DNA from: Rhizodiscina lignyota
Lineage: Eukaryota
Assembly: GCA_010015805.1 (NCBI GenBank)
Contig: ML978126.1
Location: forward strand, 930,001 to 994,000
DNA: 64,000 bases
Reading direction: 5' to 3'
Shown here: piece by piece, positions 58,095 to 64,000 of the stretch
Layout of the letters: each line of letters opens with the position of its first letter
Numbering within the stretch: position 1 is the first letter of the stretch
Translations under genes and position numbers: made by a program
The notes under the pieces: model-generated
Told to the model about the DNA's origin: nothing
The model's database searches: none
What the model saw: only the letters and a program-made list of their open reading frames with translations

Positions 58095-59184
58095 TTAAAC
58101 ATTCGTAAGAGGCTTCGTCTCCTTCGGATTGGCCTGAGCGCCACTGAAACCGGTTGGCCTCTGCTGCTCTTCCCGAGCTTCAGATTGCCCTTGAATATTT
58201 CTTTGCATATTGCCATCCTTATCCTGTAATACGGGACCATCGTGCTCCATTTCCTCCGCTTCGTCTTCTCCATACTCATCGTCCTAGGCTTAATCAGAAT
58301 CTGGAACAACAAGATGAAGGGTGGCATTTACCTCAATTATCCTAGGCTCGTGAACCAACTGGCCGACCCTTCGTAAAATGTCCGGGTCCTCTTTAGCTAG
58401 TCGTTTGGCCTCTTGATATCCATTCCAGCGCTCGATTAACGTTGCTCGAATGCAGTGCATTGTCTCGATAACCTATGAAGCCATACATTAGAGGACGTGT
58501 ATCAACCAGCAACGTCTTCACCAAAAGTAACATTGGCTTAAAGATGAAATCCAAACAAACTAACCGTCTTATCTCTCCCGTTCGCTTCGTATTCGCCATA
58601 GCCAGGTTTGAGTCTCAGTCGTTCCGCATGCTCTGTGGCCAATCTGTTCCTCTCCTTCACACATACCCACCACAGCATGTGTAAATCGTCAAAGCTCTTG
58701 TGCCGCAGCTCTTCAATAGTCCATGCTCGCCCTGTGTCCATATTGATTAGATTGATCCGCTGAGACGGTTGTATTGTTTACAGAGCATACCGTGTGCCAG
58801 GTCTTGCTCTGGTGTAGAAAACGGTTGCTTGCTCTTGCCAAAGAAGCCCCATAGCCCATGATCTGGGTCTGATTCATACTTTGTGCCCTCCTCTCTATCG
58901 AGAACTGGTTCTGGTATAGGCAGGTTCCGGACGGAAAGAGTTTGACGGGGACGTAACCCAGTCCCTCGTAACGCAGAAAGCCCACGGAGGGGGTTGTTAT
59001 CGTTTCGTGGGCGTTTTTTTCGCTTCTGTAGGGATGCCGTCGTGGAGAATTGGGCATGAGCGGTAATCGCCCCAGGAGTAGGTATCGGAAGATGGAAGGA
59101 TGGAAGGGGATGAGGCAAGAGACCCGTCGAGTTGTTGGTGGAGCATGCTCTGCAGAGCCTCTGACTTCTTGCAAAGCCAGACAT
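58095..59184 (-). CDS. MRPL4: Mitochondrial ribosomal protein uL29m (MRPL4/MRP-L47), 4 exons
   Basis: [68 protein letters not shown]. Confidence 0.93.
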
Positions 59185-59465
59185 GTTACAATGGAAACAA
59201 TTTACATGGTATGGAGTGGAACTGGTAGGATCAACTTCGTGCATGGAAATTCTGCGCTACGACGTACAGCAGAGCCGCACCTTATTTTCGCGTTCGCGCT
59301 AAATCGACAGGGGTGCGGACTTCAAGTGAATCGACAAGGCGTGGGGCACGCGCTTCACTCAGCTTCACGTCCGACTCTTCACTCGAACCATCCTACCAAA
59401 CTCTCATACGCCTTAATTCGAAACGACCAAGAGCGCTCCGCATCTACGAGCGGTCCATTGACACC

Positions 59466-61893
59466 ATGCAACGACCTGGTGAGTAGCACTTCCCTACATC
59501 CACCCATTGGAGGCACAGCAAGAGCACATGGGAATAACGGCTGGCACGTCGATACCACCCTTCAGGCAGCACTAAGCATCCGTTATAAAGAGCTAGGTGG
59601 CAATAATCTCATGTATGCTTGTGGATGTCAGAAGAGAGACTGACAAGATGCCCTCTCCTGCGCGTGAGGCTGAACACGTCGTGTGAAACGCTGTCTTTCA
59701 ATTTGCGCAATCCCCATCTGAATCAGATCTACACTTTCATGTCTCTGACATCTATACCACTTCAGGTCCCGGACCGCAACCCCTTCGTAACCTCCCTGGG
59801 AACGTCTTTGGCGGCCAACAACAAAATACTGCAAACCGAGGCACACCACTAGGCACAGGAAGGTTACAAAATGGGAAATTAGGTAGGTCACGTAAAACTG
59901 CGCTTGCCACGCTAAGGCAACACTACGGCAGCTATTGTTGACTAAGTGATCTCATTGTGAAGGTGCCAACGCAGGCTGGGGTTTCAGCATGCCGATGGGC
60001 AACACACAAGGCCTCGCCAATACGCAATCACGCGGAGGTCTGGCAAGTTTCGCGCAAACTATTGGCGGGGGCCAAAACCAGGCACCCCTCGATCTCTCGT
60101 GAGTATTTACCTTTGTTAACAATTTTGTGCCCACCTTTGTCTTTACACTCTTCTGCACACTTCTTGCTCCCCAGCGCTCTACAACATGGCGAAGAAAAAG
60201 AATCGCAAATACGTTCCCTTCGATCAGTTTGAGGCTGCCGGAGGTGCAGCTGGTGCAGCTGGTTCGGCGCATCAAGATCAGCCACAACCTCAACCCCCAG
60301 AGGTTGGCTTGGATGCCGAGGTTGCTGAGCGTGTTGAGCCTGTCGAGCACGTCGAGCCTCCTGATCGTGCTGCCGACCCTGCCGAACACGCTGAGCATCC
60401 ATCGGAAGTGCGGTATTGCCTCCTACCGATTGGCTACTTTAGAGCAATTCCTCAAAAGCCTCTTCTCCTGTTTTCCGCCTTCCTCCCACGTGACACGCAT
60501 GAACGGTATGCATTTACGCCTCATTTGAAGATACTAACTTTACCTCCCCTCTCGCAGCGAATTTCCTTCTCTCTCGGGCGCGCCTCAGCAACAACAGCAG
60601 CCAAACGCGCAAGCTCAATCTCTCTGGGCAAATCCCAGCATCCGCGCTACGCAGCACACTCCCGTGCAGCGCCCACCGCAGTCTCAGAACGGTCCGCAGA
60701 ATACCCAACAGCAAGGTCAGCAGGGTGCACAGCATCAACCGCAAGAAGAAGTTCCGCCATTCGGACAAGGCTCCGCAGACGACTATCACTTCGGCGGACA
60801 AGGCGGAGTCGGTCAGCTCTCAGGCATGGGTCAACCACAGACTGGCAATATCGAGGAATTCCCACCACTTGGCGGACTTGGAAATGGCGGCGAGGCTGGT
60901 CAAGATCGTAGAACTGGCATGATCCAGAACGCGGCATTTGGAGGTGGCGGTGGTGGTCAAGCAGGGCGTTTTGGTGGCAACATCACTCAGGTGCGCACAG
61001 GATTGACGAGTCCCGACGGACAGCAAGAGCGAGGACCGATGCGCTTGGGTGGCCAGCGCCTGCCGAGCGAAGAAGCTGGTCGAAGTGGAGTTCCGCCGTC
61101 AAGCCGTACTGCCTTTCTGGGCCAGCAACAGCCAATCGGCCAACCGATTTCTCAAGAGCAAGGTTTCAGCGGCGAGGTGCATGAGCCTGAGCAACCACCT
61201 CAGCAGAGTGGTCAGCAGAGCGGCCAGCAGCGTCTTACGGATATGTCCGAGTTTGATCGATGGGGTCTCAAAGGCTTGCTGGCGATGATCCCAAGTGACA
61301 GCCCAGACCATAGCTCCCTCGCTGTCGGCCAAGACTTGACCGTCCTTGGACTGGATCTCAACAGACCTGACAACTCTCCACTCTATCCGACATTCGGTGT
61401 CCCTTTCGGTGATCACAGCAACGGTGCCAACGGCATGCCTCGCCCGGTCATTCCCGACTACACGCTTCCTCCCTCGTACGCGGTCACGAACGTGCCGCCC
61501 TTGAACAGCAAGATGCCGAACTTCCATGATGAGACCTTGTTCTACATCTTTTACCAGTATCCGCGCGACATCATCCAAGAGTATGCGGCGGCGGAGCTAT
61601 ACGGTCGGGACTGGCGTTGGCACAAGGTGCTGAAGCAGTGGATGATGAAGGATATGCAGTACGGTGCACCTCACCAGATCAACAGCAAGCAGGAGAAGGG
61701 CTACTACATCTTCTTCGATGTGATGAACTGGCGCCGTGAGAGAGTGAGTCTATCCTTGTGTTTGATCGTTCCATGGGCTGTTGAGGTCAGGGACTAACTC
61801 GTATTGTTTTTGCAGCGCGACTTCCTTCTCCACTACGACGATCTGGATCAGCGTCATGGTTCGTCTGTGCAACTAGGCCCGCCCACTCTCTAA
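59466..61893 (+). CDS. NOT2: CCR4-NOT subunit Not2 (NOT2/3/5 box); exons 59466-59478, 59766-59882, 59963-60098, 60558-61743, 61816-61893
   Basis: DRWGLKGLL, LAVGQDLTVLGLDLN, LYPTF, FHDETLFYIFYQYPRD, AAAELYGRDWRWHK, GYYIFFD..NWRRER. Upstream exons splice in phase to give PLDLS|EFPSLS. Confidence 0.92.
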
Positions 61894-64000
61894 TCCCTTT
61901 CCTCTTCACTCGGCCTATCTTGCTTACCTCGATGCACTTACAATCAACTAGCTCTAGACAACGCGAAATGGCAGGAGATTGCGGAGAAGCTTGCAGAGAA
62001 GCTTGCGCAGGGCGAGATATCTCAGATGTCTTAGGGCAAGGGGTTGTGAGTTTCGGGATGCTGAGAGAGATCAAACGAGTCGATAAGGGAATAGGGGAAG
62101 TTGATACCGACGGTGGCGGATTTGCTGAAAGTCCTCATAAGGGACAAAAATGCTATCAAATAAATAGCAAATACCAAAGTCTCCGATCATGCCCTCTTGA
62201 AACTGTTGAATTTTGTGACTCTCTAATTGTTTCGCCACTATACGGTGTTTCGAGTATAATGGAAGAAGCTGATAGGTACTGAGAAGGATACACCCTGGCT
62301 GAAGGGATAAATATCTATTCCATGCCATACTATGTCATTCTGCTTTAGAACCATTCACGAGTCTTCTTCACTACATACCCGGTGAATCTCGATAGTAGCT
62401 GTGAGTCGAACAATGGCGTGTGCTCCCGCGAGCTGTCATGGATGATAGGGAAGAGGAGCTAGTGTACACGCGAGAATGAGTGATTGTCGAATTTAGGAAA
62501 CAGCTGACGTGCGATCCAGAGGAGGTTAACACGCGCTGGAGCAACAGCCCTTAACTGCCTGTGGATAAGCGAGCCATCGCCATCCAGAACCTTCTCCCAA
62601 ATCCTACCATCAAATGGATTACTCCCATACCACAAGACCTTCGGATGATGATGACTGTGATACTCCAATGCCCATGCCTGAAGTTGTTGCATAGTCAACT
62701 CGGGCTTGTCGTAGAGCAGATCGTCCAAGCGGTTACATTGAGCAGTAAAGAAGCGGGTGAGACGGTTGAAGCTGTCCGTCGATATCGAAGTTCTGGCGCT
62801 AGCCACTGCTAATGGCGCCTGATTAACTCAGCTAGCGAACAGGGTCGCTTTAGCCGCGCCTCAATCAGTAGATCTCTTCGTATAGTACTGGCGCCCACGG
62901 CTGTCATCCATGGTGTGACGTCGAGTAAGGAACTGAATTCAGTGTCAATTAAAAGTGTCTCGGGCTCCTCGGCTCAGAGATAGCGGAGAAATCTAAGACA
63001 TATCTATAGGTGGCTTGATGATTCGAAGGCATCCCGGTTTGGAATCAGATCCTCCGGGTCGATAGTCACTTTAAACCAGCTCGGCTTTAACGTAGCCACA
63101 ACTTGTTCAATAGCGAATAACAATGAAGTGAAATCTACCCTCATACAAAGGTCTTTCCGGATTTGAAACTGAGTTACGTAGGGGTAACAATGTGAGCAAT
63201 GAGTAAGCAGCATGAGCTGTGGCTGAGCAGGTCTGAGTTCGCCGTGAGCGAACTTGAGCCAGCGTGATTGTGCCTGATTTTGTTCCGAGAACCTCATGCA
63301 CGATGATTGTTCCTGATTCCATCCCTGAGCATCGTGAAGAGGGCCCGAAATTGGCACCGTTAAGTCGAAAATTCGCTGGTAGTGAATCTTCCCGCCCGGC
63401 GATTTTCCTCGCTCAGCGGTTTCCCCAACTCGTGATTTTTCGCGTTCAGCGAATCTTCTCACTTTACGATCTTTCGCACTTGGCGGTTCTTCTCACTCAT
63501 TGATTATTCCCATTCAACGATCCTTCTCACCCATCGATTTTTCTCATTCCAGCCTGACTCATGGTTTTTTCCAAAGGTTATTATGTAGAAGTCATAAGCC
63601 CGGCTTCCTCTTCAGGAGCAGATCCTCAGCCTCTTCGATTTCATCCTCTTAGGCATTCCACAAAGCCATAGGTGGCAACCCGTAGTGGTCGTAAGCCCAT
63701 CTTTTCCAAACCTGCGTACGCCATCAAATGGACTGAAGCCGTCAAGCAGGACACAGATCTTATAACATTTTATTAAGTCATTCTCTTGGGGCTCGCATCC
63801 CGCGCCCGTAAGTCATATGCCATTTCTACAATCACCCCACGGCCAACTCGAGTGGGAATGCGACGCGTTCAATGAGATATCCCAGAGCCGACACGTAGGA
63901 AGAGAGCGCTGTTGTCGTCGAGTGAGATTCTGGGGTTTTAAACGGAGACACGGCGAGTGTTCGGAAGAGAGCTGGAAGTTGACGTAGCCGCTGTTTCAGA

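Follow-up and report, generated by a model that had tools for sequence, protein, structure and literature searches.

The third intron of the NOT2 gene of Rhizodiscina lignyota contains a candidate alternative first coding exon, which on balance we take to be the local version of an alternative Not2 N-terminal coding segment kept by many filamentous ascomycetes. In related fungi, the ATG-initiated open reading frames (ORFs) that enter exon 4 in frame, together with purifying selection, argue that a second Not2 N-terminus encoded in the orthologous intron is a real and recurring feature. Because an intronic coding start appears to be kept by many related fungi, it is probable that CCR4-NOT contains Not2 with two distinct heads. 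Not2 belongs to the core of this complex, the main deadenylase and a regulator of gene expression in eukaryotes. It is required for growth, sporulation, and virulence in plant-pathogenic fungi (PMC5025516).

NOT2 and the anatomy of its third intron

We analysed a window of 64,000 nt from R. lignyota contig ML978126.1, in which similarity identifies the gene at 59466–61893 as NOT2 (CDC36), subunit 2 of CCR4-NOT (Table 1). Its product is similar over its full length to fungal proteins named NOT2 (527 matches at E <= 0.001; 60% identity and 100% coverage for the top match), and the highest NOT2 identity to database relatives is 60–73%. The canonical N-terminus aligns with Dothideomycete NOT2 proteins, and the exon-4 product carries the conserved NOT2_3_5 domain (PF04153; residues 293–395, 105.7 bits versus a cut-off of 27, E 2.2e-30). 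Intron 3 extends from the GTGAGT donor at 60099 to the CAG acceptor at 60555–60557. A first-pass annotation of this DNA had proposed this 459-nt intron, with splicing from 60098 to 60558 and the product LDLS/EFPSLS. The proposal is borne out: the exons join in phase 2 (TC/C, encoding Ser), and the five exons, when joined by script, give one open frame of 509 codons.

The same annotation had noted an ATG in good context within the intron, opening a stop-free frame. We confirmed an ATG at 60186–60188 in the context ACAACATGG, with A at -3, followed by 106 open codons. The pyrimidine-rich tract described ahead of it is also present (72% pyrimidine over the 80 nt preceding the ATG), and the nearest upstream ATG (59995) lies 191 nt away with no other between them. 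The encoded peptide starts MAKKKNRKYVPFD. Its composition agrees with the head of about 107 residues, basic and then acidic, that had been predicted: K/R account for 5 of the first 15 residues, and the P/A-rich middle (residues 16–75) has 14 D/E versus 2 K/R. The last third of the nested ORF is pyrimidine-rich and intron-like.

Direct read-through into exon 4 is closed by TGA (60526–60528) and TAA (60535–60537). The TAA lies in the branch site, and a nested mini-intron is therefore needed to join the ORF to exon 4 in this species. The last 150 nt of intron 3 contain a single GT with G at +5, the GTATGC at 60506. This putative donor is in phase 2, identical to the phase of the end of exon 3, and the alternative coding sequence (nested ORF plus exon 4 onward) is open over 527 codons. 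What had been claimed of the donor's phase, of a 52-nt intron using the same acceptor, and of a TACTAAC within it (60532–60538) held up. Its description as a consensus donor calls for caution, as it has C at +6 versus T in 19 of 19 orthologous intron donors.

Table 1. Features of the R. lignyota NOT2 locus and of its third intron (window coordinates)
Feature	Position	Strand	Remarks
NOT2 exon 1	59466..59478	+	ATG plus 10 nt, phase 1; N-terminus as in homologs (MNRPG...)
NOT2 intron 1	59479..59765	+	287 nt, GTGAGT...CAG; also long
NOT2 exon 2	59766..59882	+	Homologous to NOT2 N-termini
NOT2 exon 3	59963..60098	+	Ends ...APLDLS, phase 2
NOT2 intron 3	60099..60557	+	459 nt, GTGAGT...CAG
Pyrimidine-rich, ATG-free tract 5' of internal ATG	60126..60185	+	Putative internal transcript start region
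CAG, possible acceptor of 76-nt intron	60172..60174	+	Poison-exon reading; stop after 19 codons
Candidate alternative first coding exon	60186..60505	+	ATG, 106 codons plus 2 nt (CG)
9-nt tandem repeat GGTGCAGCT	60243..60263	+	2.3 copies, within nested ORF; period a multiple of 3
9-nt tandem repeat GAGCCTGTC	60327..60359	+	3.7 copies, 75% matches, within nested ORF
Nested mini-intron (predicted)	60506..60557	+	52 nt, GTATGC...CAG; branch site and acceptor are those of intron 3
TACTAAC branch-site consensus	60532..60538	+	Contains TAA 60535-60537
NOT2 exon 4	60558..61743	+	EFPSLS... to ...WRRER; common to both predicted isoforms; NOT2_3_5 C-terminal domain
NOT2 intron 4	61744..61815	+	72 nt
NOT2 last exon	61816..61893	+	Includes stop codon

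The orthologous intron in related fungi

The start of exon 4 was present in 38 of 52 metagenome loci. Removal of 11 near-duplicates left 27 loci, which were sorted by eye into 19 lineages; the canonical upstream exon was confirmed in 16 of these, and per-lineage counts used the first member of each lineage. The intron preceding the EFPSLS exon occupies a conserved position, with a length of 162–620 nt in 16 of 19 measured loci and 74–114 nt in the other 3. An in-frame ATG-ORF of 22–84 codons that crosses the acceptor and continues into exon 4 is found in 12 of the 16 independent lineages. Of the three frames, the one used by exon 4 stays open longest in 13 of 16 lineages (binomial p = 1e-4); across all 19 lineages its median open length is 59 codons, versus 2 and 14 for the remaining two. 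Shuffle tests for in-frame ORFs, Fisher-combined across lineages, gave p = 1.5e-5. In several lineages the internal ATG lies only ~20–55 nt into the intron, so a strictly intronic promoter cannot be general.

The intronic ORF is under purifying selection in two groups of species. In the group formed by L022, L024, and L026, dN/dS was 0.12–0.23 and substitutions at codon positions 1/2/3 numbered 4/5/17, 3/7/19, and 1/2/13. Their 191-nt ORF has no gap columns versus 1–2 in the 41–42 nt preceding the ATG. The second group (L025 and L028) had a dN/dS of 0.17, 11/7/25 substitutions, and 0 gap columns in the ORF versus 7. Changes at the third position prevail in both groups; binomial p-values ranged from 1e-3 to 2e-6. 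The comparison of L012 with L006 yielded a dN/dS of 0.25–0.31 with dS saturated. Furthermore, two pairs of lichen fungi share 63–65% identity in the intronic N-terminus, with one single-residue gap each (counted from alignments).

Database proteins also include intronic starts. Among 120 homologs, 15 start in frame inside the intron (as ORF calls or gene models) and 87 have the canonical junction only. The nearest relatives whose N-terminus shows the exon 3/4 junction (P0003, P0005, and P0011; 59–60% identity) all have in-frame ATG extensions. The cloned Not2 gene of Fusarium oxysporum has, in the available text of its description, a single intron of 819 bp (PMC5025516), a possible counterpart of intron 3.

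The in-frame ORF is missing or broken in L002, L003, L004, L009, L018/L019, and L032 and is therefore dispensable in some species. Loss is seen in L032, which has a 30-nt deletion and a nonsense change, and in L002/L004, which differ from L005. L018/L019 were considered as another instance of ORF shift and rejected, as the long open frame is canonical exon 3 and the intron is ~110 nt without an ORF. No nested mini-intron was found among the relatives examined. Most relatives need no mini-intron; the R. lignyota layout is derived and its donor is the weaker one.

Losses of this kind are consistent with a decaying relic in R. lignyota, in which an indel would have moved a former in-frame head out of frame, its product would have been lost, and the phase of the 60506 donor would be luck. 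The two stops that close the read-through frame, the C at +6 that makes the donor weaker than all of its orthologs, and the intron-like last third of the ORF point the same way. However, the 106 codons are still open, neither the ATG with its context nor the N-terminal motif (next section) has been lost, the sole donor with +5G within 150 nt of the intron end falls in the one correct phase out of three, and the repeats within the ORF keep a period of 9. We regard such decay as unlikely. An independent small gene nested in the intron, with a product separate from Not2, is highly improbable. The unspliced ORF from 60186 is open to 60911, but over exon 4 it simply reads Not2 out of frame, the searches gave neither a homolog nor a Pfam family for it, and the intronic ORF of relatives is always in frame with exon 4.

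Sequence links of the intronic peptide and the case for chance

In several lineages, the intronic N-terminus begins with basic residues and goes on with a [KR]-Y-x-x-hydrophobic-[DN] motif; both features are present in the R. lignyota peptide. The pattern [KR][YF][VTMN].[LVF][ND], which was tuned with the R. lignyota peptide in view, had a single match, at residue 8 of the nested ORF, among all six-frame ORFs of the window (104,578 residues). In the loci, apart from the alternative N-termini of L006, L011, and L012-14, which match by construction, 451,316 residues yielded 3 background matches. P0005, a protein not used in building the pattern, also matched, at residue 10. In addition, local alignment of the first 24 residues with L011 gave p = 0.0035 by shuffling. 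The second Not2 N-terminus put forward in the first-pass annotation is partly supported, by in-frame, selected ORFs in the intron of relatives and by the basic start and motif that the R. lignyota peptide has in common with several of them.

Wider similarity to the R. lignyota peptide was not detected. Pairwise alignment of the N-termini gave no significant score in 9 of 11 cases, and an HMM of the other lineages' N-termini scored the nested ORF at 1.2 bits (approximately rank 36 of 1933) and did not single it out. The anticipated conservation of the ORF in orthologous introns is seen in position and frame. In sequence searches, blastn and tblastn with the intron and the peptide against the 52 loci returned nothing below E 0.02. 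When the 106-residue peptide was run with phmmer on 1.84 billion representatives, no homolog emerged. The one match, P0123 (E 3.6e-4), was judged to be chance, as it is a 496-residue tandem-repeat protein with ~35 residues matched in each repeat. None of 1915 candidates reached E <= 10 for the peptide in a word-based search for longer proteins, Pfam assigned 0 families to it, and a protein atlas search gave no usable match. Among the relatives, a query with the 135 intron-derived residues of P0003 retrieved P0003 as the sole match, and BLASTP of P0001 versus P0003 gave none. A search for fungal contaminant contigs in prokaryote genome contigs found none.

The lack of a sequence homolog and the outcome of the HMM search would suit an ORF that arose by chance in a long intron rich in GC and bearing repeats, its length being owed to an enhancer, an RNA element, or regulated splicing. 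Four of six frames are open in 60120–60430, so that openness by itself is weak evidence, and a 203-codon open frame also spans the NOT2 promoter and intron 1. The codon usage of the nested ORF is weakly coding-like (0.18–0.20 bits per codon, reached by 5 of 97 shadow ORFs), and a synonymous-only codon score provided no discrimination. The codon-usage score had looked strong until it was set against other long open frames. Several results nonetheless argue against chance, which we consider improbable as an explanation. Dinucleotide-preserving shuffles of the intron 3 interior reproduced the layout in 7 of 5000 trials (0.0014), counting any ATG-ORF of at least 106 codons that ended in phase at a GT[AG]NG donor placed 45–150 nt from the acceptor. 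The single motif match in the window falls exactly at the N-terminus of the peptide, and the orthologous intron is demonstrably coding in other lineages. As for an RNA element, Rfam (E <= 1, 59000–62400) assigned no RNA family to the intron and gave one weak lncRNA match outside it.

The first-pass annotation had also read the intron as a poison exon, and its claim that the CAG at 60172–60174 leads to an early stop is correct from the sequence (19 codons, frame f2). Exon 3 would be spliced to this CAG, the 331-nt piece 60175–60505 would be included, and the early stop in the exon-3 frame would permit autoregulation by NMD. Both introns that this splicing entails are allowed by the sequence, a 76-nt one (GTGAGT, a TTAAC-like site, a pyrimidine tract, and CAG) and the 52-nt one. 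A poison exon, however, accounts neither for the internal ATG, the 106 codons open after it, and the motif nor for the amino-acid selection in relatives, and we find it very unlikely as the explanation of the intron. The poison-exon and alternative-head readings are compatible and do not exclude each other.

A probable second Not2 head and its relation to known systems

In most relatives, the intronic ATG opens a frame that crosses the branch site and acceptor and continues into the EFPSLS exon. Its continuity with exon 4 means that an mRNA containing that part of the intron would encode a different Not2 head. The R. lignyota segment lies in another frame and can be joined to exon 4 only by the removal of 60506–60557. 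We infer the start site, splicing, translation, and function of the alternative head in this species by what seems the most likely route. A transcript would start in the ATG-free region 59998–60185, probably within the intron, and AUG 60186 would be its first AUG. Splicing of the mini-intron (60505>60558) would then produce a 527-residue isoform in which the 89-residue G/Q/N-rich head gives way to one of 107 residues, basic and then acidic. The NOT-box region, which places Not2 in the CCR4-NOT complex, would be retained in both isoforms, so the difference between them would be in complex partners or location. An NLS in the alternative head, or a switch of localization or partners by it, is speculation. 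We hold more tentatively, as a real possibility, that NOT2 is two-headed across several classes of filamentous ascomycetes, with two kinds of CCR4-NOT and a dual-use intron whose 3' half, together with the branch site and acceptor, also codes for the head with the basic start and conserved motif, and that R. lignyota has a nested intron rescuing the head after a frame change.

Alternative-start isoforms are a known phenomenon. The Delta-N isoforms of animal p63 and p73 use an intronic promoter and a short unique first coding exon that replace the N-terminal domain; as proposed for NOT2, the rest of the protein is common to both isoforms. The animal introns are very long and the unique exon is spliced normally, whereas most fungal NOT2 genes would use a 5' extension through the splice acceptor. 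In Neurospora, splicing of a start-codon-bearing intron of frq sets the long and short forms of FRQ. This filamentous ascomycete thus provides a likeness to the NOT2 proposal, with the keeping or removal of an intron deciding the choice of AUG and of N-terminus. The frq intron, however, lies right at the beginning of the ORF, and the FRQ proteins are nested, whereas the two heads of Not2 are unrelated in sequence. The brlA alpha transcript of Aspergillus nidulans begins inside the intron of brlA beta. Alternative transcription starts in fungi, such as those of brlA alpha/beta, yield N-terminally different proteins ('echoforms') according to the accessible part of their description (PMC12810187). 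As there described, they resemble the NOT2 proposal in that one gene has two starts, the downstream one giving a different N-terminus. The NOT2 case differs in having its second start in an intron deep in the coding region, after three coding exons, in replacing 89 residues rather than gaining or losing a targeting signal, and in an alternative coding sequence that shares nucleotides with the host intron's branch site and acceptor.

Two N-terminal forms have also been described for Not1/CNOT1, likewise a core subunit of the complex; as far as the available text of a 2025 CCR4-NOT review goes, they alter module docking and one is a truncation (PMC12746107). The literature searched, including that portion of the review, held no description of a fungal Not2 isoform, and we found no report of the fungal Not2 case. 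In Drosophila, intron 4 of regena (NOT2) gives rise to a stable intronic RNA, sisR-1, and an intronic promoter was excluded there, according to the accessible sections of the report (PMC4621838). Regena thus offers another NOT2 intron with a function of its own. On that account, processing of the pre-mRNA releases a non-coding RNA, whereas the fungal NOT2 intron is under protein-coding constraint.

Fungal introns are usually short, and an alternative head would explain the unusual length of NOT2 intron 3 in fungi. In relatives, the intron would be a clean case of a sequence that doubles as splice signal and codons. Annotation with one model per gene hides the alternative head, and the 15 homologs that start in the intron look like mis-annotations. 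If the second conserved N-terminus is true, these fungi would have two CCR4-NOT populations, possibly differing in partners or location.

NOT2 and the open frame in its third intron

The window carries a NOT2/CDC36 homolog whose exon 4 encodes the NOT2_3_5 C-terminal domain (PF04153, 105.7 bits). It matched 527 fungal homologs, the best 120 of which come for the most part from Dothideomycetes, Eurotiomycetes and lichen-forming fungi; the closest among the matches listed share 60% identity at full coverage and 73% over 77% coverage. Residues 1-89 of the canonical protein can be aligned to the N-termini of homologs. Intron 3 is long, as is intron 1, which follows a first coding exon of 13 nt.

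Features of NOT2 and its third intron (window positions)
Feature	Position	Strand	Description
NOT2/CDC36 homolog gene	59466-61893	+	homology and domain
Canonical exons	59466-59478, 59766-59882, 59963-60098, 60558-61743, 61816-61893	+	one open 509-codon CDS
Open frame over promoter, exon 1 and part of intron 1	59032-59643		203 codons
Intron 1	59479-59765		287 nt
Intron 3	60099-60557	+	459 nt, GTGAGT...CAG
ATG-started frame in intron 3	from 60186		106 codons plus 2 nt
Exon-4 read-through frame	60103-60528		141 codons, until TGA at 60526
Nested intron	60506-60557		52 nt, donor GTATGC
TACTAAC	60532-60538	+	sequence reading

The first-pass annotation had proposed an alternative first coding exon inside intron 3, and every sequence element it named was found on re-reading. 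The ATG (ACAACATGG) opens a frame that runs to a GTATGC donor, which has the phase in which exon 3 ends and lies 52 nt upstream of the acceptor common to intron 3. Joining this frame to exon 4 gives an alternative CDS that is open for 527 codons. The encoded N-terminal part, or head, starts basic, with 5 K/R among residues 1-15, turns acidic over the following 60 (14 D/E versus 2 K/R), and contains a KKNR that fits the minimal nuclear-import pattern (K-K/R-x-K/R). The +6 base of the donor is C, versus T in all 19 orthologous donors listed.

Long open frames do arise by chance in this DNA, since one of 203 codons spans the promoter and part of intron 1; in the central part of intron 3, four of six frames are open. 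The layout of the window was matched by 7 of 5000 dinucleotide-preserving shuffles of the intron interior, counting ATG-started ORFs of at least the observed length with an in-phase end at a GT[AG]NG donor 45-150 nt from the acceptor. A chance ORF is, in our assessment, improbable. Codon usage does not settle coding status: the score of the ORF, 0.18-0.20 bits per codon, compares with 0.127 +/- 0.038 in true coding windows, but 0.184 is also attained by 5 of 97 shadow ORFs with 100 codons or more, and scoring synonymous choice alone was uninformative. The exon-4 read-through frame has a codon score near zero (0.02) and no basic start.

Orthologous introns in other fungi

P0003, the closest full-length relative in the databases, is an ORF called from genomic DNA and reading into the last intron. 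The 134 residues upstream of its EFPSLS motif differ from the canonical N-terminus and include an internal M with a stretch rich in K/N/R after it, which prompted a reading of the orthologous introns in the frame of exon 4 in other fungi. Scanning metagenome contigs with a NOT2 alignment yielded 52 loci, which were located through C-terminal peptide patterns and so picked independently of the intron. The exon-3 end (LD[LP]S) and exon-4 start could both be placed in 19 loci, all of which have the intron at the same codon position, with lengths of 620, 382, 353, 263, 256 (three loci), 243, 232-234 (four), 191 (two), 187, 162, 114 and 74 nt (two). The cloned Not2 of Fusarium oxysporum f. sp. niveum is reported to have one intron only; at 819 bp (PMC5025516), it is very long for the genus.

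For the counts, 38 of the 52 loci contained the exon-4 start (in the other 14 the contig was too short or a second motif missing). Removal of 11 near-duplicates left 27, sorted by eye into 19 lineages; 16 of these, which exclude L040/41, L042/50 and L043, have a confirmed canonical upstream exon, and the first member of each was counted. An ATG-started ORF of 22-84 codons runs through branch site and acceptor into exon 4 in 12 of these 16 lineages. Furthermore, in 13 of 16 neither of the other two frames is as long as that of exon 4 (p = 1e-4 if one third is expected, 0.011 if one half is). Combining the shuffle tests by Fisher's method gave p = 1.5e-5. The recurrence of in-frame intronic ORFs in relatives is well supported. 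The four lineages lacking one are L002, L003, L009 and L018, with short introns in L009 (74 nt) and L018 (about 110 nt); L005 has an ORF that its relatives L002 and L004 miss. In L032 (68-229), compared with its close relative L030 (160-350), the ORF is broken by a deletion of 30 nt and by a nonsense change, GAA to TAA, and the intronic substitutions (7/1/3 by codon position) have no third-position bias. In that lineage the second head seems either to have been lost or never to have been in use.

Of the best 120 database homologs, the canonical junction is present in 87, the motif is missing from 2, and 15 start in frame inside the orthologous intron (P0003, P0005, P0011, P0027, P0037, P0063, P0066, P0067, P0070, P0072, P0082, P0088, P0101, P0114 and P0121), these being ORF calls or automatic gene models that show ORF presence only. 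The other 16 are truncated, intron-retaining or further-downstream-starting models. Many genomes have unstable gene models at this intron: among the NOT2 models P0055, P0100, P0032 and P0073, the annotated ones of a Pleosporales species and of Aspergillus flavus NRRL3357 retain the short orthologous intron in frame (21-22 extra residues), and other junctions appear in those of Kalmusia and A. wentii.

Coding signature and shared starts

Judged by their substitutions, the intronic ORFs of related-sequence groups evolve like protein-coding regions. For example, the ORFs of loci L022, L024 and L026 have dN/dS of 0.12-0.23, substitutions of 4/5/17, 3/7/19 and 1/2/13 at codon positions 1/2/3 and no gap column over 191 nt, versus 1-2 gap columns, one frame-shifting, in the 41-42 nt upstream of the ATG. 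L025 and L028 behave similarly (dN/dS 0.17; 11/7/25; 0 versus 7 gap columns), and binomial tests of non-synonymous versus synonymous changes gave p of 1e-3 to 2e-6. Between L006 and L012-14 the peptide is still recognisable at saturated synonymous divergence (dN/dS 0.25-0.31), and two lichen-fungus protein pairs share about 63-65% identity (hand count) in the intron-derived part, with one single-residue gap each. Retention of the intron in a product begun at the canonical start cannot explain this signature, because most of the introns are not a multiple of three and reading on from exon 3 usually meets a stop inside the donor.

In orthologous introns an ORF of this kind is kept by position and exon-4 frame; the peptide of the window, for its part, has no detectable homolog by phmmer over 1.84 billion representatives, bar one chance-like match. 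That match (Y..LP..FR..QKP..L.S), which we discounted, is to P0123, a 496-residue protein of roughly 64-residue tandem repeats that looks like a translated DNA satellite. Nor did the peptide match longer proteins, a Pfam family or the protein atlas, and Rfam found no family over intron 3. A separate gene nested in the intron is very unlikely.

Some heads share their starts. Those of L006, L011 and L012-14 read M-[GA]-(P)-K, a K/R-rich stretch and [KR]-Y-x-[ST]-[LV]-[ND]-[LF]-[DE]; the window has MAKKKNRKYVPFD, which does not match the strict pattern. A loosened pattern, [KR][YF][VTMN].[LVF][ND], derived with the window in view, matches once in 104,578 residues of window six-frame ORFs, at residue 8 of the ORF. 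In 451,316 locus residues it finds, apart from three unrelated places, five alternative N-termini, which it hits by construction; it also matches residue 10 of P0005, outside the defining set. Local alignment of the first 24 window residues was equalled by 0.35% of shuffles against L011 and 3.4% against P0027; 9 of 11 pairwise N-terminal tests were not significant, and an HMM of the other lineages' N-termini failed to single out the window ORF. A second lineage group has a different start, MPPK.S.TWAELV or S/T-W/Y-A-E/D variants (L020, L038 and L044, about 70 nt before exon 4; also L036, L039 and L043). The DNA directly upstream of its ATG is conserved among three species, and dN/dS is 0.32-0.43 over just 22 codons.

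A predicted second head of Not2

In relatives, translation in the frame of exon 4 mostly turns the branch site (CTAAC or CTGAC) into Ala-Asn or Ala-Asp (GCT-AAC or GCT-GAC). In the window this frame is closed twice, by the TAA within TACTAAC and by a TGA that precedes it by nine bases, and the conserved-looking ORF lies in another frame. The nested intron is therefore its only route to exon 4, and no second example of such an intron was found among the relatives compared. A relic of a second head, no longer joined to exon 4, is a minor though real possibility. We favor the window ORF as a local form of the recurrent second head, a predicted isoform. The mRNA 5' end would most likely lie between 59998 and 60185, a stretch free of ATG, and the nested intron would be removed before the ORF is translated joined to exon 4. 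This internal start is favored over retention of intron 3 in a full-length mRNA because the canonical frame would run for 90 codons before meeting a TGA in the donor, and an ORF of that length makes re-initiation inefficient. The poison exon suggested in the first-pass annotation, reached via the CAG at 60172-60174 and leading to an early stop, is compatible with the internal start and seems quite unlikely.

The L006 contig (1781 nt) spans a single NOT2 gene. The 59-nt intron that follows residue 228 of exon 4 in its relatives L012-14 is absent from it, whereas the long intron holding the alternative ORF is present. The contig could be RNA-derived, a hint of intron-containing RNA, or equally a genome that lost the other intron.

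As far as titles, abstracts and selected passages of the literature searched go, N-terminal isoforms are known for Not1 (PMC12746107), a Drosophila NOT2 intron has an RNA product of its own (PMC4621838), and alternative start sites in fungi yield different N-termini from one gene (PMC12810187), as proposed here for NOT2. In the same material we found no description of a second Not2 N-terminus in fungi, which is apparently new, alternative-start isoforms as such being already known. Because the NOT box is in both, both predicted isoforms should enter the CCR4-NOT complex.
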